A DNA stretch of 64,000 nt, from sequence record MN850621.1; one strand, written 5' to 3'. This document shows positions 2,993-28,701 of the stretch, piece after piece. This stretch comes from Escherichia phage dhabil. The number at the start of each line of letters is the position of its first letter. Position 1 is the stretch's first letter. The notes beneath the pieces are model-generated. The model was given only the letters and a program-made list of their open reading frames with translations. It was not told the origin of the DNA and did not search any database. The position numbers and the translations under genes are program-made.

Positions 2993-3391
2993 TTATTTCA
3001 TTTTTGCTAGGCAAATTTCATTGGCTTCCCATTGAGCTTGCTTAATAATAGCTTTGGATACAGGAACCCTTTGACCATAAGTTTTTGACGTTGAGAGAAC
3101 AATATATTTGTTTGCCTCATTATGCCAACCTAGTGATTTTTCACCATGAGTACCTTTAACCACAGCTGACACCTCAACAGAGCAACCACCATCAGAAATC
3201 TTGGTTTCTACAATCCATTCATTTCTCTCGACAGCTTCAATTTCCGATCTCCTTTTTTCTTCATACATGGCGGCCCAATCAGTTTTTGCCAAGCTGAAAG
3301 TAAGAGCTTTCTCTAATTCTTTGGCAGCTTTTTGTTGTTCAGGCGTTAATGAATTATACAACTCTTGCATTTCTTTATCTTCGATATTCAT
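2993..3391 (-). CDS. hypothetical protein (132 aa)
   Basis: ORF track; RBS GAGGAGA before ATG at 3389-3391. Confidence 0.55.
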
Positions 3392-3416
3392 TATGCTCTC
3401 CTCAAATTACGGGCTC

Positions 3417-3446
3417 ATAATATCTCAATCATGAGCCCGTGTAAAC
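3417..3446 (-). promoter_or_regulatory. early promoter (GTTTAC-N18-TATTAT) inside hairpin ACGGGCTCAT...ATGAGCCCGT
   Basis: Minus sense: GTTTAC ACGGGCTCATGATTGAGA TATTAT; 10-bp inverted repeat encloses the -10. Confidence 0.4.
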
Positions 3447-3448
3447 AA

Positions 3449-3712
3449 TTATTTCATATTATTGAAATAATCTTCCGCATCAAAATCGTTATCGTGATAA
3501 ACTTTGGTAGACAATTTGACGTACCCTTCGGCAGCAAACATATTAACCACAACCTTTACGGTATACCACTGTCCATCGTCATTACCCATTACTGCGTAGG
3601 TTTCAAATATGGGATGGTCATCACCTATAACCTTAATATCGTTAACAGTAGCACCAAATTCTTCAGGAACGCATTTCATAAAGAAATTAAACAATTCACC
3701 ATAATTATCCAT
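3449..3712 (-). CDS. small acidic hypothetical protein (about 87 aa from MDNYGELF)
   Basis: ORF track uses a GTG start at 3727; ATG at 3710-3712 has RBS GAAGGAGAG and is preferred. Confidence 0.5.
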   Translation of the reverse strand: MDNYGELFNFFMKCVPEEFGATVNDIKVIGDDHPIFETYAVMGNDDGQWYTVKVVVNMFAAEGYVKLSTKVYHDNDFDAEDYFNNMK

Positions 3713-3747
3713 TTTACTCTCCTTCACTCTGTTGTTTTGATAGGTCT

Positions 3748-3776
3748 ATAGTATCACGTTTAAAGGAGGTGTAAAC
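3748..3776 (-). promoter_or_regulatory. early promoter (GTTTAC/TTTACA -35, TACTAT -10)
   Basis: One of three near-identical copies of ...TTTACA-N16/17-TACTATAG(G/A)CCTATCAAAA (also at 5902 and 6253). Confidence 0.5.
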
Positions 3777-3807
3777 AACTTTGTGAAATTATTTTTAGTT
3801 TAAACCC

Positions 3808-3829
3808 CCTAAAAGGAGACCGAAGTCTC
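3808..3829 (-). terminator. intrinsic terminator GGAGAC-TTCG-GTCTCC + TTTT (minus sense)
   Basis: Hairpin followed by TTTTAGGGGG, directly after the 3836-4459 gene. Confidence 0.5.
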
Positions 3830-3835
3830 CTTTCA

Positions 3836-4459
3836 TTATTTACGAGTCTTTTCGAACTGAGCTGCGTCACCGGCCAGTCGGCGTGCTTGACGAAGTTTGT
3901 TGTCAATTTCTTCGCGCATAGGCTGGGTGTACTTAAGGCCTTCAACCGTCAGATAGAGACGATAAAGGTCTGGTGTGTCCAGGTTGTTAATGTGTTGACC
4001 GTTACGAAGAACATTGAATTCACGAACAAGGTGTTTAGTTTCGGATTCTATTTCAGAAACCAAAGAAGCCAGTTGGTTATATTTTTTAACAATAGTGCTG
4101 GTGTCGAACTTGATTTTAGGTTTAGGAGCTTCTTTTACAGGCTCTGCTTTAGGTGCTGCCGCAGGTTTAGGTGGTGCAACTTTGGTTGGGGCTGCAGGTT
4201 TAGCAACAGGAGCTTTAGCTGGTTTAGCAGGTTTAGTAGCGCCACCGGCTACGATATCTTTAAAAGCTTTGGAAGCTTTGTAATATTCTTTCTGGTTACT
4301 AGTATCAAAACCATACATATCATAAACGTTTTTAAAGAACTCGGTAGTGGTTTTAGTCCCGGAAATTTTATCATAAGCAGCTTGCCACATATCTTTAGTC
4401 ATGCGCACGCTGGCTTCAGTCAGAACGCTTTCGTTCAAAAATTCATTGTAAGTTTTCAT
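3836..4459 (-). CDS. internal head protein, IPIII-like (207 aa) with N-terminal capsid-targeting sequence MKTYNEFLNE
   Basis: N-terminus matches the T4 internal-protein CTS (MKTYQEF-type, L-x-E gp21 cleavage context); Lys/Ala/Pro-rich basic core; T4 IPIII is similar in size. Confidence 0.7.
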   Translation of the reverse strand: MKTYNEFLNESVLTEASVRMTKDMWQAAYDKISGTKTTTEFFKNVYDMYGFDTSNQKEYYKASKAFKDIVAGGATKPAKPAKAPVAKPAAPTKVAPPKPAAAPKAEPVKEAPKPKIKFDTSTIVKKYNQLASLVSEIESETKHLVREFNVLRNGQHINNLDTPDLYRLYLTVEGLKYTQPMREEIDNKLRQARRLAGDAAQFEKTRK

Positions 4460-4529: not shown

Positions 4530-4694
4530 CCTAGGGTAACCTTGTCGGGGTTCCACCTGCTAGGCAAGTGTTCGGTGCGCCGTTTCAGCTGTGAGATAAG
4601 GGACTTTAAGAGGAACTCATGTACGCCTTAAAGTCGGGTCTTATTCAGGGAACTTCAGTCCGACGACTTACCGGTAGCGACCCGGTTTCTTGTT
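4530..4694 (-). ncRNA. candidate small stable RNA just 3' of tRNA-Arg (position analogous to T4 species 1/2 RNAs)
   Basis: 165-nt non-coding stretch between tRNA-Arg and the terminator, with nested inverted repeats (AAGTCG...CGACTT, CCTAG...CTAGG); no cloverleaf. Confidence 0.3.
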
Positions 4695-4770
4695 TGGTCG
4701 AGACAGTAGGGATCGAACCTACGACCCAGGACTTAGAAGGTCCTTGCTCTTCCTTCTGAGCTATGCCTCG
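4695..4770 (-). tRNA. tRNA-Arg (anticodon UCU), CCA encoded
   Basis: Manual fold: acceptor CGAGGCA/TGTCTCG, D-arm GCTC/GAGC, anticodon stem AGGAC/GTCCT with loop CTTCTAA, T-arm GTAGG-TTCGATC-CCTAC. Confidence 0.8.
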
Positions 4771-4774
4771 TATT

Positions 4775-4849
4775 TGGCGGACATGCATGGATTCGAACCA
4801 TGGACCAATTGATTAACAGTCAACTGCTCTACCACTGAGCTACACATCC
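4775..4849 (-). tRNA. tRNA-Asn (anticodon GUU), CCA encoded
   Basis: Manual fold: acceptor GGATGTG/CATGTCC, D-arm GCTC-AGTGGTA-GAGC, anticodon loop CTGTTAA, T-arm CATGG-TTCGAAT-CCATG. Confidence 0.75.
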
Positions 4850-4853
4850 AAAT

Positions 4854-4927
4854 TGGTGGCCCTGGGTGGAATCGAACCACCATCCAGCGATTATGAGTCG
4901 CTCGCTTGACCGTCCAGCTACAGGGCC
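4854..4927 (-). tRNA. tRNA with CAU anticodon (Met, or Ile if lysidine-modified), CCA encoded
   Basis: Manual fold: acceptor GGCCCTG/CAGGGCC, anticodon stem AGCGA/TCGCT with loop CTCATAA, T-arm GGTGG-TTCGATT-CCACC. Confidence 0.75.
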
Positions 4928-5012
4928 TTAATTCTATTATGAAAGGCTCTTTGAGGGAAGAACCTTTGGTAATAGAGGGTATTAATGATAGAGTAATAAT
5001 ATCACATAATTC

Positions 5013-5297
5013 TTAAAGCATATTAATATAGTCAAGTTTAATAGAAGCAATCTTCAAAGGGTTTTTAAAGATGTCGTATTCGACCAATCCATTTTCAGTT
5101 GCGGTATAAAAAGTAAAGTTAACAGAATTATAGCGATGGCTGTTAACTTTGAGTTTAACATCGCTTGAACTACGGCCAATATTAACCTGTTGAACATCAA
5201 GCACGGCATCTTTGCCGTAATTTCGAATCAACAACTCGGCTGCAACCTGATCGGATTTATAGCCATTCTCTGGATTAGTAACCTTAACGTATAACAT
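5013..5297 (-). CDS. hypothetical protein (94 aa)
   Basis: ORF track; abuts the upstream gene end. Confidence 0.5.
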   Translation of the reverse strand: MLYVKVTNPENGYKSDQVAAELLIRNYGKDAVLDVQQVNIGRSSSDVKLKVNSHRYNSVNFTFYTATENGLVEYDIFKNPLKIASIKLDYINML

Positions 5298-19862: not shown

Positions 19863-19870
19863 TATAAATA
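19863..19870 (+). promoter_or_regulatory. T4-type late promoter TATAAATA
   Basis: Exact TATAAATA 27 nt upstream of the gene 9 ATG. Confidence 0.6.
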
Positions 19871-22568: not shown

Positions 22569-23233
22569 TGACTTTAACAGAAATGAAAAGCGGGTTAAAA
22601 TCCCGCCTTGCCGACTTTTTAGAATTTTCTTTTACAACTAATCAACCTGCCGCAGTGGCAGGTCAACGCCCTATTGGTGGTCCATCGGCAAACCAAACCC
22701 GAAAAGGCGTTTATTACCCTACAGTCCAAAGTGCTATTGATGATATTGCTTTCCGCGCAGAACTTCCTGTTAATGCGGTGGTAACTACTACCGAAAACAG
22801 AGCGCCTGGCTTTATCCAACAATCTGATAAATTAACTTTCTCTGGCTCCATTTCTTCTGGTGGCGAATTAGGCGATACGGTTATAATTAAGGTATTTGGT
22901 TTGCCTGTTGAAGTTATTGTGGGTGATTCTTCGGTTCTGGTTGCTTCTAAAGTTAACGATGTTTTTATAAGCGCTATTGCTAATAGTTATATTTTAGCAG
23001 AAACCTCTATCGACCCTCTGGACCAATCTACTTTAAACATTAAATATAACGACTACCAAAACCATATTTTTGAGCCATTTAAACAGGCTGGATGTACCAT
23101 TTCCCAAACTATAGTCCAAGAGCCTCGTGCAGGTTATGGATACTGGGAATATTTAGGTTCTACTACAGAATCTATGACCGGTGGAACTATAAATGGAACT
23201 ACAACTTTATATCACTATAAGCGAGTAAGTTAA
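22568..23233 (+). CDS. 11: gp11 baseplate wedge / short-fibre attachment protein
   Basis: Synteny and size (221 aa). Confidence 0.8.
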   Translation: MTLTEMKSGLKSRLADFLEFSFTTNQPAAVAGQRPIGGPSANQTRKGVYYPTVQSAIDDIAFRAELPVNAVVTTTENRAPGFIQQSDKLTFSGSISSGGELGDTVIIKVFGLPVEVIVGDSSVLVASKVNDVFISAIANSYILAETSIDPLDQSTLNIKYNDYQNHIFEPFKQAGCTISQTIVQEPRAGYGYWEYLGSTTESMTGGTINGTTTLYHYKRVS

Positions 23234-24765
23234 TGTCTACAAATACACTAAAACATATAAGTGATAAATCGGAATTTAAAACATTCGACCCTACCGGGTC
23301 GAATTTTGACCCTAGTATTACCAACGTCCAAGACGCCTTATCATCCATTTCTGCTATAGGTGTTACAGGTAATATTCCGGCCGCATCCGAAACAGAACAG
23401 GGTATTATTAGATTAGCCACCCAACAAGAAGTTATTGATGGCACTGATACTTTCTCTGCTGTGACCCCGGCTACTTTAAAAGGCCGCTTGGACATTCCTA
23501 CTCAAGCAACTGAAACCTATGTAGGTATCACACGTTATGCTACTAATGATGAGGCCATCGCTGGGACAGAGACCCAGGCTGCAATCGTAGCATCATCTTT
23601 GAAGGCTACTATAGATTATACATTCACCAATCGTTTAGCCACAGAGAACACTACAGGTGTACTCAAGATTTCAACCTTGCCAGCGGCTTTAGCGGGTACA
23701 GATGATACTACGGCTATGACGCCTCTTAAAACCGCACAGGCAATTGGAGCCGCTACATCGGCCTTACCAACTTATGCAAGTGCAACACAAACTACTGAAG
23801 GTATTGTTAGAATCGCGACAAATGCCGAAGTGGCAAATGGCACATTGACTAATGGCGTCGCAATTTCTCCATCAGGGCTTATTTCTTTAACTTCTAATAC
23901 TTCTCGACGTGGACTGGTTCAATTAGCCACTGGAGCTGAAGTTTCGGCCGGAATTGATGCAAATAAAGCTATTACGCCTCAAACCCTTTTGTCAAGAACG
24001 GGTAATACCGGTAGAATAGGCCTTCTTAAAACCACAACTACCGTGGGTTCTGGCGATGGAAGTACAGCATTGGCATATAATGCTAACGTTATTTCTACCA
24101 CCGGTGGTACTATTAATGGTACTTTAAACGTTAATGGTACTTTACGTCGTAATGGGCGTGATGTTGTTACTGTCGACCAATTAAAAGATTCTGTTCCTAT
24201 TGGTACTATCGTTATGTGGGGAGGCCAAATTAACAATATCCCTGCAGGTTGGGCCGTTTGTGATGGTGGTAACTCTGGTGAGCAAGGATTCCGAAACGTA
24301 GTTGGTAGTAAATGGGGCTCAACTGGTGCTCGTCCTGACTTCCGTGGATTATATCCTAGAGGTGCAAACCAAACTAATGACGGTGGATTAAAAGAATGGG
24401 ACGCCAACGTTAGAATTAGAGACGCCAAAGGTAACGACGCCAAAGGCAAACCAAAATTAGGTGTAGGTTGTGGTTCATATGGACACGGTACAGTACAAGC
24501 TCAACAACTTCGGTTCCATAAACATGCAGGTGGTTTTGGTGAACATGATAACGCAGGTGCTTTTGGTAACACTGTTCGTTCCAACTTTGCCGGTACTCGT
24601 AAAGGATTAGACTGGGATAACCGTTCTTACTTTACAAACGAAGGATACGAAATTGACGGTTCCGGTTCACGAGATTCAAGAACTACCCTAAACAGTGAAG
24701 GGTTAATTGGTAACGAAAACCGTCCTTGGACTATGTCCATCCTATTCATTATTAAAGTTGCTTAA
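23233..24765 (+). CDS. 12: gp12 short tail fibre
   Basis: Synteny and size (510 aa); repeated G-(I/V)-x-R-(L/I/Y)-AT-x-x-E blocks in the N-terminal half. Confidence 0.85.
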   Translation: MSTNTLKHISDKSEFKTFDPTGSNFDPSITNVQDALSSISAIGVTGNIPAASETEQGIIRLATQQEVIDGTDTFSAVTPATLKGRLDIPTQATETYVGITRYATNDEAIAGTETQAAIVASSLKATIDYTFTNRLATENTTGVLKISTLPAALAGTDDTTAMTPLKTAQAIGAATSALPTYASATQTTEGIVRIATNAEVANGTLTNGVAISPSGLISLTSNTSRRGLVQLATGAEVSAGIDANKAITPQTLLSRTGNTGRIGLLKTTTTVGSGDGSTALAYNANVISTTGGTINGTLNVNGTLRRNGRDVVTVDQLKDSVPIGTIVMWGGQINNIPAGWAVCDGGNSGEQGFRNVVGSKWGSTGARPDFRGLYPRGANQTNDGGLKEWDANVRIRDAKGNDAKGKPKLGVGCGSYGHGTVQAQQLRFHKHAGGFGEHDNAGAFGNTVRSNFAGTRKGLDWDNRSYFTNEGYEIDGSGSRDSRTTLNSEGLIGNENRPWTMSILFIIKVA

Positions 24766-24774
24766 GGAAATAAA

Positions 24775-26937
24775 ATGATTGACAAACTGAGTATTAAAGA
24801 ACTTCCGTTTGTCGATGGTGTACCTGATGCATCCCAAGAGCGTATCCGTTGGATACGCAATGGCGAATGTATTGAAGGAGCCACGACTAAATACGGTCAC
24901 GACGGTAATTTGAATGCCCCTGCTTTAGGAGTACAAACTAACGTAGTTAGATTAGAAGAAAACAGCATAGCTTCTAAAGACAAAATTAACGAGCTTGTGG
25001 ATAACGTTAATTTGATTAATGAAGCCCTTGATATTTCTACTGATACGGCTGTTATTCAGCAAATTGAAAAGAACCGTGTCGATATATTGGCTGTAGATGA
25101 AAAGGCTTCCGAGACTAAAAAGGACTTAGGCGACTTAACAGTTAATTTTAATTTTTTAGAAGAAGATGTCGGTTATTATGACCCGTCTTTAGATGGCCCG
25201 TATCTCACTGTTAGAGAAAATATAAATCTTCTTAAATCAGAAATTGGCCATTATGCAAACCAAGATATAAACAGCCAGCCGCTTCCTCCCGGTGAAACTT
25301 CTGAAGCCACCGGTATGAAACGTCGTATTATGGATAATACCAGTGCTATTGTCGACCATTCGCAACGTATAGATACCCTTGAAAAGAATTATGAAGATTC
25401 TGATGTAGGTCAACTTGGGCTTAAACTTAACGAAATTCGTGAAGAACTTGGTCCACATATTGATACGGTAGGTAAACAACCTGCTTATACTAGAATTTCA
25501 GCTCTCGAAACGGCAGCCGTAAACTTTAATGAATCGATAGATTCTATCAAAACCAGTATAGGCTTTAATAAGGGCTCTATTGATACCAGAGTAACTACAT
25601 TAGAAACTAAAACGTCTACTTTAGAAAACACTGTTAATAATGGATTGGTCCCTAGGGTTACTGCAGTAGAAACTGCCATCGGTACTGCCGATACCCCTAC
25701 GTCTATTAACGGCAGATTGGGCGGCTTGCGTACTGATGTTAATGAGTTAAAAACCATAGTTGGTGCTAGTTCATCTGAAGGGCTTCGTTTCCAGGTTTCT
25801 GATATAGACCGTAAAATCGGTGCGGATGTGAGTCCGGCAGCAGGAACAATCAATAAACGTTTGAACGACCTTACAACTCAAGGCAATACTTCAGCCTCTA
25901 CTATTCAGGATTTGCAGGCCGAAATTGGTAATAACCAAACAGGCATCAAAGGTTCTATTCTTAAAATCACCAACCAAATTGAAGGAACCAACCCTAACGG
26001 TAGTACCGTAGAAGAACGAGGATTAATAAACTCGGTTAAAGGCCTTGAAGCTCAGATGCCTACTAAATTGGGTGAAGCACCTACTGATGGTAAATTGTAT
26101 GGACGTAAGGATTCGGCATGGACGGAAATCCTTGATGGTACTACAGAAATCGATGCAGTAAAAGCTTCTTTATTGGTTACTGATGGTAAGGTATCAGCCT
26201 TAACGGCTAGAGTCGATACTAATGACGCCTCCATTTCTTCTCTTGATACCAGAACTGGTGCTTTAAACACTTCAGTAGGAGAAATTAAAGCCGATGTTGT
26301 TTTGTTAAAATCCAAAGACACTGAGCAAGATAATCGTATTACTGCTTTGGAAGAAAGTGACGTAACTATTAATGGCAAAATAACCGCATTGGAAACCAAG
26401 ACGGATACAACCGATTCTGATGTTACGGCTTTGGCTTTAGATGTGAGTTCTATAGAATCACAATTAACCCCTATTAAAGCCGATATAACCAAGAATAAAG
26501 GTGATATCGTTACTTTAACCGGGCGAGTAGCAGCTAATGAAGGCGAAATTACTGATATTAAATTAGATACCGCTAAAATAGCTCCTTTAACAACTCGTGT
26601 AACAACAGCTGAAGGTAAAATAACTACACTTCAGTCCGATTTAGCCGCAGTTAAGGTTGAATCGGATAAAGTAGAAGGAATTGATACTCGATTAGGTACA
26701 TCTGAAGGTAAAATAACTACCCTTGAAACAGGTTTGGCTGCCGTTAAAGTTGAATCTGATAAAGTTGCCGATTTAGGAACCCGTTTAACCGCCGCCGAAG
26801 GTAAAATTACAGCCTTAGAAACAGAATTAGCTAAACGTCCGCCGGTGGCTCCTGCTGCAGACGGACTCCCGTACGTTCTGGTTGATAACGCATGGGTATT
26901 ATTGTCTGATTTTGTGACTTTAAACTCAGCACCATAA
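24775..26937 (+). CDS. wac: fibritin (whisker), extended 720-aa form with C-terminal foldon-like segment
   Basis: Long heptad coiled-coil; C-terminus DGLPYVLVDNAWVLLSDFV resembles the T4 foldon; position between 12 and 13. Confidence 0.85.
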   Translation: MIDKLSIKELPFVDGVPDASQERIRWIRNGECIEGATTKYGHDGNLNAPALGVQTNVVRLEENSIASKDKINELVDNVNLINEALDISTDTAVIQQIEKNRVDILAVDEKASETKKDLGDLTVNFNFLEEDVGYYDPSLDGPYLTVRENINLLKSEIGHYANQDINSQPLPPGETSEATGMKRRIMDNTSAIVDHSQRIDTLEKNYEDSDVGQLGLKLNEIREELGPHIDTVGKQPAYTRISALETAAVNFNESIDSIKTSIGFNKGSIDTRVTTLETKTSTLENTVNNGLVPRVTAVETAIGTADTPTSINGRLGGLRTDVNELKTIVGASSSEGLRFQVSDIDRKIGADVSPAAGTINKRLNDLTTQGNTSASTIQDLQAEIGNNQTGIKGSILKITNQIEGTNPNGSTVEERGLINSVKGLEAQMPTKLGEAPTDGKLYGRKDSAWTEILDGTTEIDAVKASLLVTDGKVSALTARVDTNDASISSLDTRTGALNTSVGEIKADVVLLKSKDTEQDNRITALEESDVTINGKITALETKTDTTDSDVTALALDVSSIESQLTPIKADITKNKGDIVTLTGRVAANEGEITDIKLDTAKIAPLTTRVTTAEGKITTLQSDLAAVKVESDKVEGIDTRLGTSEGKITTLETGLAAVKVESDKVADLGTRLTAAEGKITALETELAKRPPVAPAADGLPYVLVDNAWVLLSDFVTLNSAP
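26590..26850 (+). repeat. about 2.5 tandem copies of a 93-bp (31-aa) repeat inside wac
   Basis: GAAGGTAAAAT recurs at 26611, 26704 and 26797; protein repeat ...EGKITTLE..LAAVKVESDKV...TRL.... Confidence 0.7.
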
Positions 26938-26940
26938 TAA

Positions 26941-26962
26941 AAAGGGCTTCGGCCCTTTTTTG
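26941..26962 (+). terminator. intrinsic terminator GGGC-TTCG-GCCC + T6 after wac
   Basis: AAAGGGCTTCGGCCCTTTTTTG. Confidence 0.6.
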
Positions 26963-26963
26963 C

Positions 26964-26971
26964 TATAAATA
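26964..26971 (+). promoter_or_regulatory. T4-type late promoter TATAAATA
   Basis: Exact TATAAATA 22 nt upstream of the gene 13 ATG. Confidence 0.6.
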
Positions 26972-26992
26972 CGGTTATTAGAGGAATAAAAT

Positions 26993-27925
26993 ATGGCAAG
27001 CGAATCATTCAACCCTAAGCAACTCAAGGACGCTATTCTGCGCCGCCTGGGTGCACCGATTACAAATATTGAAGTAACTACAGACCAAGTATATGATTGC
27101 ATCCAGCGTGCTCTAGAGCTCTACGGTGAATACCATTATAACGGGTATAACAAAGGATATCAGGCTTTTTATATCGGCCACGACGATGAAGAAAAATTCC
27201 GTAATGGTGTATTCGACCTTAAAGGACGTAATATATTTGCAGTAACACAAATTTTGAGAACTAACGTTGGTTCTTTAACATCTATGGATGGGCAAGCAAC
27301 TTATCCCTGGTTTACAGATTTTGTATTAGGCTTAGCTGGTATTAATGGTGGGCTTGGGTCTTCATGTAACAGTTTCGGACCTAATGCCTTCGGCGCCGAC
27401 CTTGGTTATTTTACGCAGCTAATGCAATATCGTTCTATGATGCAGGACCTTTTGGTTCCACTACCAGATTATTGGTATAACGATGCCACTGAACAATTGA
27501 AGGTAATGGGTAACTTTGTTAAAGGCGATTTTATTGTAATCGAAGTTTATACTCGTTCTTTTAATGGGGTTGATTCTATGGTTGGAAATACCGTAGGCTA
27601 TGGTTATGCTTCGGCCTGTGGTGAAAACGAATGGAGCCCAGGTGCTATTTGGGATAACCCATCTCGTCGTATTTCCGGTATGCGCGTAGGCGAGGACCTC
27701 GGCCTTCAGGACGGTGCATATAATAACCGTTGGGTTAAAGATTATGCCACTGCATTGGTTAAAGAAGTCAATGGCAATATTCTAGCCAAACACCAAGGCA
27801 TGCAACTTGCAGGTGGAACCACTGTAGATGGTATTCGATTGATTGAAGAGGCTCGTTTAGAAAAAGAACGTCTTCGTGAAGAATTAGATTTGCTCGACCC
27901 ACCAACACCTATTTTAATTGGATAA
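26993..27925 (+). CDS. 13: gp13 neck protein
   Basis: Synteny and size (310 aa). Confidence 0.8.
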
Positions 27926-27927
27926 TT

Positions 27928-28701
27928 ATGGCTACTTTCGATTCGAGTTTATTCGCTAAGCTAGAAGATAATACTGGCTATGCTAACACGAACGAAACTG
28001 AAATAATGAACCCATTCGTCAACTTTTATCGCCATGAGAACACCCAAACATTGGCTGATGCTTTAGTTGCTGAGTCTATTCAAATGCGTGGTATCGAGCT
28101 TTATTATATACCACGTGAATATGTTAAACCAGACCAGCTATTTGGCGAAGACCTTCAGAACAAATTTACTAAAGCCTGGAAGTTTGCAGGTTATTTAGAT
28201 TCCTTTGAAGGTTATTCCGGTGACAATACTTATTTCAGTAAGTTCGGTATGATGGTTAATGATGAAGTAACAATCACAATTAACCCTAACCTTTTTAAAC
28301 ATCAATGCAATGGTACTGAACCTGTTTCAGGTGACTTGATTTATTTCCCTATGGACAACAGTCTATTTGAAATTAATTGGGTTCAACCTTACGACCCGTT
28401 CTATCAAGTTGGTACAAACGTCCAGCGTCGTATTACTGCTACCAAGTTCATTTATAATGGTGAAGAACTTCGTCCTGAATTACAGAGAAATGAAGGTATT
28501 AATATTCCTGAATTCAGTGAGCTTGATTTAATGCCTGTTAAAAATATCGACGGGTTGGCTGATATCTCTGATATCCAATATGAAGAGGTTAATGAGATTA
28601 ATGCTGAAGCAGCGGAATTCGTACATCCTTATGTGGTGATTAATGGTAGAGGAGAAGATGCTCCTCCTACAGCATTTGATGATGCTTTTTTAGATGATTA
28701 A
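27928..28701 (+). CDS. 14: gp14 neck protein
   Basis: Synteny and size (257 aa). Confidence 0.8.

Follow-up and report, generated by a model that had tools for sequence, protein, structure and literature searches.

The wac gene and its product

The wac gene lies in a 64,000-nucleotide stretch (64 kb, here called the window) of Escherichia phage dhabil, sequence record MN850621.1, and encodes a fibritin, the neck collar/whisker protein. The gene is very probably a fibritin gene of the type known from phage JS98, specifying the collar/whisker fibre of a Dhakavirus, with the repeat array in its distal spacer having been contracted or exchanged. The gene and the parts of its product, all on the plus strand, are as follows.

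24775..26937, plus strand: wac, fibritin (neck collar/whisker protein) of the JS98 type, 720 amino acids (from the open reading frame (ORF), the T4 match and annotated Dhakavirus relatives)
24790..26064, plus strand: N-terminal neck-attachment domain and segmented coiled-coil shaft, residues 6-430 (collinear with T4 residues 5-432)
26068..26139, plus strand: foldon 1, the internal foldon-like motif, residues 432-455, LGEAPTDGKLYGRKDSAWTEILDG (Pfam Fibritin_C and T4 alignment)
26140..26520, plus strand: the non-repetitive part of the coiled-coil spacer between the foldons, residues 456-582 (heptads and AlphaFold2)
26521..26592, plus strand: a 24-amino-acid unit in single copy, GRVAANEGEITDIKLDTAKIAPLT, which is the expanded unit of Gaprivervirus fibritins (count of the motif K[LVI]DTAKI)
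26593..26685, plus strand: 31-amino-acid/93-bp repeat unit 1, TRVTTAEGKITTLQSDLAAVKVESDKVEGID (repeat search; 65.2 bits to the unit profile)
26686..26778, plus strand: 31-amino-acid/93-bp repeat unit 2, TRLGTSEGKITTLETGLAAVKVESDKVADLG (repeat search; 66.1 bits to the unit profile)
26779..26835, plus strand: partial unit 3 of 19 amino acids, TRLTAAEGKITALETELAK, which closes the coiled coil ahead of foldon 2 (21.6 bits over profile positions 1-18)
26839..26916, plus strand: foldon 2, the C-terminal foldon-like motif, residues 689-714, PPVAPAADGLPYVLVDNAWVLLSDFV (aligns with the T4 foldon)

A preliminary description of the window had recognized a wac ORF of 720 amino acids as much longer than its T4 counterpart, and both points hold: T4 fibritin has 487 amino acids (PDB 2bsg_A), and the window protein exceeds it by 233 residues. 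The two proteins match with an E-value of 1.5e-73 (phmmer). One HMMER alignment, with small indels only, spans residues 6-430 of the window protein and 5-432 of the T4 protein, and residues 6-84 match the crystallized T4 N-terminal constructs 1ox3 and 2ibl at an E-value of about 1e-14, so that the conserved neck-attachment domain of T4-type fibritins, some 50 amino acids long, is present. The long segmented coiled-coil shaft is evident from the T4-collinear alignment, the heptad frames and the helical distal part of the AlphaFold2 model. At the DNA level wac of the window shares 99% identity with its counterparts in CLB_P2 and dhaeg, both Dhakavirus, and 89-93% with those in ESCO10 and IME08, which points to an origin from a JS98-like (Dhakavirus) T4-type coliphage; the nearest database genes are annotated as fibritin and are in Dhakavirus phages.

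Two foldon motifs

The Pfam family Fibritin_C, whose model includes the foldon, matches in mid-protein at residues 373-452 (E 3e-22, profile positions 4-90 of 93), and GEAPTDGKLYGRKDSAWTEIL at residues 433-453 aligns to the T4 foldon sequence. This internal foldon was missed in the preliminary description. The foldon-like C-terminus that had been proposed there is borne out, as PVAPAADGLPYVLVDNAWVLLSDFV (residues 690-714) can be aligned to the foldon of T4 in 1avy and 1rfo and in many constructs fused to a foldon; the C-terminal foldon, a beta-hairpin trimerization motif of about 27 amino acids, is thus recognized by sequence only. The last segment of T4 fibritin together with its foldon matches the two motifs about equally, with 34.7 bits against the terminal and 32.0 bits against the internal one, so that either may be the orthologue of the T4 foldon. 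Two T4-like foldon motifs in one chain are the mark of the JS98 type.

Comparison was extended to 20 wac genes, 16 from Dhakavirus and 4 from Gaprivervirus, taken from a phage GenBank collection. The conserved pattern of foldon 1, AP.D[GN]K[LM]Y.R....W, starts at residue 435 in 16/16 of the Dhakavirus genes and at residue 432 in 4/4 of the Gaprivervirus genes, a constant position although the shaft lineages share only 63-81% DNA identity. The foldon 2 pattern DGLPYVLV.NAW is present in all 20. Gaprivervirus fibritins have the two-foldon plan too, with DN replacing DG in foldon 1. When both motifs are set against the T4 foldon, foldon 1 keeps E and R at the positions of T4 E461 and R471, which we take to form the inter-subunit salt bridge of the foldon; foldon 2 has V and L there, a possible paired swap to a hydrophobic contact. 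That a conserved internal foldon can have more coiled coil behind it is of some interest for engineers who use the foldon as a trimerization tag.

A protein homologue search with residues 425-720, in which 8000 candidates were scored, gave, among the matches listed, one short Dhakavirus fibritin and weak coiled-coil hits. Pfam Fibritin_C and DUF7310 also occur together in short proteins (312-374 amino acids) from ENA/NCBI contigs as long as 127 kb; these share 32-39% identity with the distal module of the window protein and may represent foldon-bearing fibres that do not belong to the classical T4-like fibritins.

The spacer and its 31-amino-acid repeat array

An AlphaFold2 single-sequence monomer model of residues 425-720 is helical over residues 441-593, with a predicted local distance difference test score (pLDDT) above 90 for about residues 465-535. 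The heptad frame is continuous from about residue 463 to 605 and is then shifted by +3 at each 31-residue unit, because 31 is four times seven plus three.

About 2.5 copies of a 93-bp unit had been described in the distal coiled coil, and these are found as two full units and one partial unit between 26593 and 26835. In a self-comparison over lags of 3-399 the lag of 93 comes top (49/60) and 186 next (41/60), whereas codon-shuffled controls averaged 33.7 and never exceeded 38, so that the periodicity, for which a self dot-plot had been advised as the check, is present. The marker GAAGGTAAAAT occurs at 26611, 26704 and 26797, with a spacing of 93 bp, and has one more match in the window; 0.08 matches are expected per shuffle, and four were reached in none of 100 shuffles. 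Tandem Repeats Finder did not call the array even with its minimum score lowered to 30, because the copies are only about 70% alike.

Units 1 and 2, a 93-nt direct repeat, are 72% identical in nucleotides and 68% in amino acids, and the partial unit 3 has 65% nucleotide identity to each full unit over 57 nt. With these levels of DNA identity, and with 15 of the 26 nucleotide differences between units 1 and 2 at third codon positions, the three units are old duplications under protein-level constraint. The preliminary description had called the expansion recent, which does not stand, the adjacent near-identical copies that it would entail being absent.

A profile of the unit was built from 22 distinct units of related phages. 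Outside the three copies it scores at most 3.3 bits anywhere in the window protein, which is within the range of shuffles. The idea that the whole spacer consists of older copies of the 31-residue unit was set aside as not demonstrable, as the last segment of the T4 protein gives 4.6 bits and shuffles give up to 5.8. Of the 233 extra residues the array accounts for 62 (two full units) or, if the partial unit is counted, 81, and the remaining excess is a non-repetitive coiled coil of about 150 amino acids after the internal foldon. Repeat expansion, to which the extra length had been attributed, therefore explains the 62-81 residues and not the rest. Relative to T4, the 233 extra residues are a post-foldon extension module comprising about 230 residues of coiled coil and a second foldon.

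Length variation among relatives

Length polymorphism in the 20 genes is entirely between the two foldons, as is characteristic of the variable spacer of the JS98 type. The distance between the foldons ranges from 40 amino acids in AnYang (514 in total) to 353 in Esco_phi_B-01 (827 in total), and most of this range is made of whole or partial repeat units. The non-repetitive part, 26140..26520 in the window, is deleted in AnYang, JS98-C3 and Bp7. Dhakavirus arrays resolve into 31-amino-acid units and derivatives of 14, 17, 24, 45 and 52 amino acids, and copy number does vary among related isolates, a comparison that the preliminary description had thought worth making.

1 full 31-amino-acid unit: dhaeg, PSD2002
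2 full 31-amino-acid units: window, ESCO10, MX01
3 full 31-amino-acid units: JS98
4 full 31-amino-acid units and a 17-amino-acid remnant: IME08, JS10

The two full units of the window are low within the sampled range of 0 to about 5. Across the genus the position of certain units is conserved: the first unit begins TRVTTAEGKI..., the last full unit ends ...VADLG, and a terminal partial unit follows. Partial unit 3 and foldon 2 are kept in every allele, the shortest included. Conserved edge units are the usual signature of unequal exchange in the interior of an array.

The multiplied unit of Gaprivervirus fibritins is different, being 24 amino acids (72 bp) with the consensus xRVxxxExEITAIKLDTAKIAPLx. 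It is present once in TH15, RZ and the window, twice in Esco_phi_B-01, three times in VR26 and six times in MN01. Spacer variation is thus built mostly from discrete coiled-coil units, of 31 amino acids in Dhakavirus and 24 in Gaprivervirus.

Direction of change and recombination

Aligned along the full gene, the window and dhaeg are separated by 2 substitutions and a single 93-bp indel (dhaeg lacks the 93 bp), the window and CLB_P2 by 8 substitutions and a single 156-bp indel (CLB_P2 has the additional 156 bp). The breakpoints are inside short stretches common to adjacent units, GTTGAATC-GATAAAGT and GGTTTGGC-GC-GTTAAAGTTGAATCTGA-AAAGT. The dhaeg unit is a clean chimera, its 5′ part being that of window unit 1 and its 3′ end that of unit 2. 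The extra DNA of the longer alleles is a diverged unit, only about 72% like its neighbors, and the longer alleles are therefore not fresh duplicates of the shorter ones. An expansion had been read from the repeats of the window, and the direction is not upheld, the nearest alleles differing by in-register indels of diverged DNA. Nested deletions, or exchange with other alleles, best explain the series from CLB_P2 through the window to dhaeg, and the window allele is likewise best seen as a contraction of, or an exchange with, a longer CLB_P2-like array.

Exchange has left its marks elsewhere in the gene. UP19 and Esco_phi_B-01 are 97-100% identical to the window at gene positions of about 1500-1800 (window 26275-26575) and 63-81% in the shaft, so carrying a window-like spacer on a JS98-like shaft. 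In JS98 and JS10 the high identity (94-100%) is confined to the final 300 nt, the other parts of the gene matching the window at 61-80%. The distal module has certainly been exchanged between shaft lineages, and wac is a mosaic. The available extracts of MX01 (4656-5163), VR26 (3532-4079) and RZ (3145-3780) have an endonuclease or homing endonuclease (SegC-like) annotated right after gene 13. The window has no endonuclease insert at that place, its gp13 and gp14 lying directly against each other (27925/27928). Homing-endonuclease co-conversion could contribute to the mosaicism of the 3′ end of wac.

Alternative explanations

A recent tandem expansion of the 93-bp unit in the lineage of the window, lengthening a T4-like whisker, would fit the reality of the 93-bp periodicity, and also the variation in copy number among wac genes that are otherwise 99% identical, from which it follows that the array is dynamic on a short time scale. 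It is nonetheless very unlikely, as copies that are 72% and 65% identical are far from the roughly 100% of a fresh duplication, the array is a minor part of the extra residues with the remainder being non-repetitive and behind the internal foldon, the order of units is common to the genus, the two full units of the window are near the low end of the range, and deletions between diverged units account for the differences from the nearest relatives. That the copy-number differences are artefacts of assembly, by collapse or expansion, with the true length constant, is scarcely to be credited. Tandem repeats are a classic source of short-read misassembly and some of the records are unverified or unannotated, but 93-bp units with some 65-75% identity are easily resolved by ordinary reads, two separate CLB_P2 records agree on a gene of 2319 bp, and all alleles are in frame. 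Moreover IME08, IME341 and JS10 share a 799-amino-acid architecture, and the window, ESCO10 and MX01 share one of 720 amino acids, on different backbones.

The array may instead be a selected length-tuning device, in which copy number would set the reach of the terminal foldon along the retracted tail fibre, and so the environmental control of infectivity, with the polymorphism being adaptive. T4 fibritin touches the long tail fibre with its C-terminal part, close to the knee, and holds the fibres ‘up’ (Letarov & Krisch 2013, Ecol Evol 3:3628, PMC3797505). The indels seen all preserve both the reading frame and the repeat register, no allele has lost foldon 2 or the last partial unit, and the distal module, which is swapped between lineages, shows higher conservation than the shaft. 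In-frame, in-register indels would, however, also be left by purifying selection against frameshifts, and relaxed constraint is a better fit for the coexistence of spacers of 40-353 amino acids in one genus on one host species. Adaptive tuning is on balance unlikely, though it deserves to be kept in mind.

The reading of the gene as a JS98-type fibritin with a contracted or exchanged array has its own weak points. The trimeric coiled coil and the fold of both foldons are assumed by analogy with T4 and with what has been published on JS98, the statistics for foldon 2 on its own are weak (E 0.01-0.1 with a 45-amino-acid query), and the monomeric AlphaFold2 model has a pLDDT below 50 at both foldon motifs. 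The choice between deletion and import by recombination is judged from three alleles only, and the sample of 20 genes comes from one database, with copy numbers that rest on deposited assemblies.

Proposed working of the fibre

In T4, gp13 binds twelve fibritin trimers, of which six make up the collar and the other six the whiskers (PMC12929629). The foldon starts trimerization, contact of the C-terminal part with the long tail fibre near its knee aids fibre attachment, and fibritin keeps the fibres retracted (‘up’) under unfavorable conditions (PMC3797505). As the N-terminal domain and shaft of the window protein are collinear with those of T4, the same roles are expected. The sequence comparisons show what the gene is, that it has the two motifs, how the repeats are built, that length polymorphism is confined to the spacer, that in-register indels occur on nearly identical backbones, and that the gene is mosaic. 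That the protein is trimeric, that foldon 2 guides its folding, how long the fibre is and by what molecular route the indels arise are inferred. The N-terminal domain would dock on gp13, as in T4, and be followed by the segmented, T4-collinear shaft and then, at a fixed position, by the internal foldon-like motif; the distal spacer would end in the array of diverged 31-residue units, after which the C-terminal foldon most likely nucleates in-register trimerization, again as in T4.

The rise of a coiled coil is 1.5 Å per residue. Each unit, with its four heptads and a three-residue shift, would then measure about 4.6 nm if extended, and the sampled alleles would span roughly 45 nm of extra reach. 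Spacer length may change by either of two routes. One would be out-of-register homologous recombination or slippage between diverged units, meeting at short shared stretches such as GTTAAAGTTGAATC-GATAAAGT, and the other a swap of the whole distal module between co-infecting relatives.

The foldons might conceivably split the work, with foldon 1, at an invariant distance from the neck, keeping the T4-like geometry for the collar and tail-fibre docking, and the arm bearing foldon 2 acting as a separate appendage, an extra sensor or a surface-binding reach. Such a division is quite improbable; if true, the distal arm would change length rapidly through recombination between repeats, and would in effect be a contingency locus for the behavior of the virion. 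The near-identical phages dhaeg, the window phage and CLB_P2, with 1, 2 and about 3.7 units, are a natural allelic series that could serve to probe the effect of whisker length on tail-fibre retraction or adsorption.

Neighboring genes, intergenic signals and public annotations

The features flanking wac are the following.

23233-24765: gp12, short tail fibre, the upstream neighbor of wac (Pfam short-tail-fibre domains)
26939..26960, plus strand: hairpin with a UUCG loop and a T-run, just past the wac stop codons (RNA fold)
26964..26971, plus strand: TATAAATA, 22 nt upstream of the gene 13 start and 3 nt past the hairpin/T-run
26993-27925: gp13, the downstream neighbor of wac (Pfam T4_neck-protein)
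27928-28701: gp14, after gp13 (Pfam T4_neck-protein)

The order gp12-wac-gp13-gp14 is that of T4, and the annotations of relatives likewise place wac between genes 12 and 13; the T4_neck-protein match downstream of wac has an E-value of 2e-107. The hairpin has 9 pairs (-12 kcal/mol, z -2.4) and is probably a transcription terminator or an RNA-stabilizing hairpin, though a consensus terminator scan did not list it. The sequence TATAAATA is the T4 late-promoter consensus. It was not found between gene 12 and wac, the nearest upstream copy on the plus strand being at 19863, which suggests that wac is read through from an upstream late promoter. A minus-strand ORF of 125 amino acids at 26631..27008, considered as a gene, was set aside: it is fully antisense to wac, crosses the intergenic hairpin and is without support.

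Public annotations of the region are uneven. The ESCO10 record labels wac ‘phospholipase’, gp12 ‘baseplate wedge subunit’ and gp14 ‘baseplate hub subunit and tail lysozyme’, and in the CLB_P2 record wac is a ‘hypothetical protein’. The IME08 record starts wac 69 nt too early, with an overlap into gene 12, gene 13 is broken into two ORFs in the vB_EcoM_005 record, and JS98-C3 is filed as a Tequatrovirus though its wac is Dhakavirus-like.

Comparison with known fibritins

The architecture seen here, in both its length and its double foldon, is already known, being that of the published JS98-type fibritin. Letarov & Krisch (PMC3797505) describe this type by its two T4-like foldon motifs, separated by a coiled-coil spacer whose length ‘may vary’, report that the fibritin of JS98 needs only these motifs to trimerize, regard the T4 type as derivable from the JS98 type through a deletion, and cite Latypov et al. 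2007 on JS98C3. Such self-sufficient trimerization, without a chaperone, is consistent with the list of ORFs in the window, which has no extra ORF between wac and gene 13. That paper nowhere uses the word ‘repeat’. The details added here are incremental: spacer variation resolves into units, foldon 1 keeps a fixed position, the indels have a polarity, and a near-isogenic series exists. The gene itself is a standard JS98-type fibritin and matters little beyond bookkeeping.

With the T4 protein (2bsg, 3j2o, 1aa0, 1avy, 1rfo) the window protein shares the N-terminal domain, the shaft, the foldon signature, the gene position and the segmented heptads. T4 fibritin, however, has one foldon, at its C-terminus, whereas the window protein has an internal foldon-like motif, about 230 more amino acids of coiled coil and then a second foldon. 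RB43-type fibritins have one or three immunoglobulin-like domains (PMC3797505), in contrast to the window module, which is a 31-amino-acid coiled-coil segment and not globular. In other fibrous proteins of phages and bacteria length is likewise changed by the gain or loss of modules through recombination of repeated DNA. From the JS98-type fibritin there is no essential difference: the two foldons, the variable spacer, the T4-like N-terminal domain and shaft, and the phage group are alike, wac of the window has 73-100% identity along its length to that of JS98, and over its first 1415 nt wac of JS98-C3 is 91% identical to that of the window.

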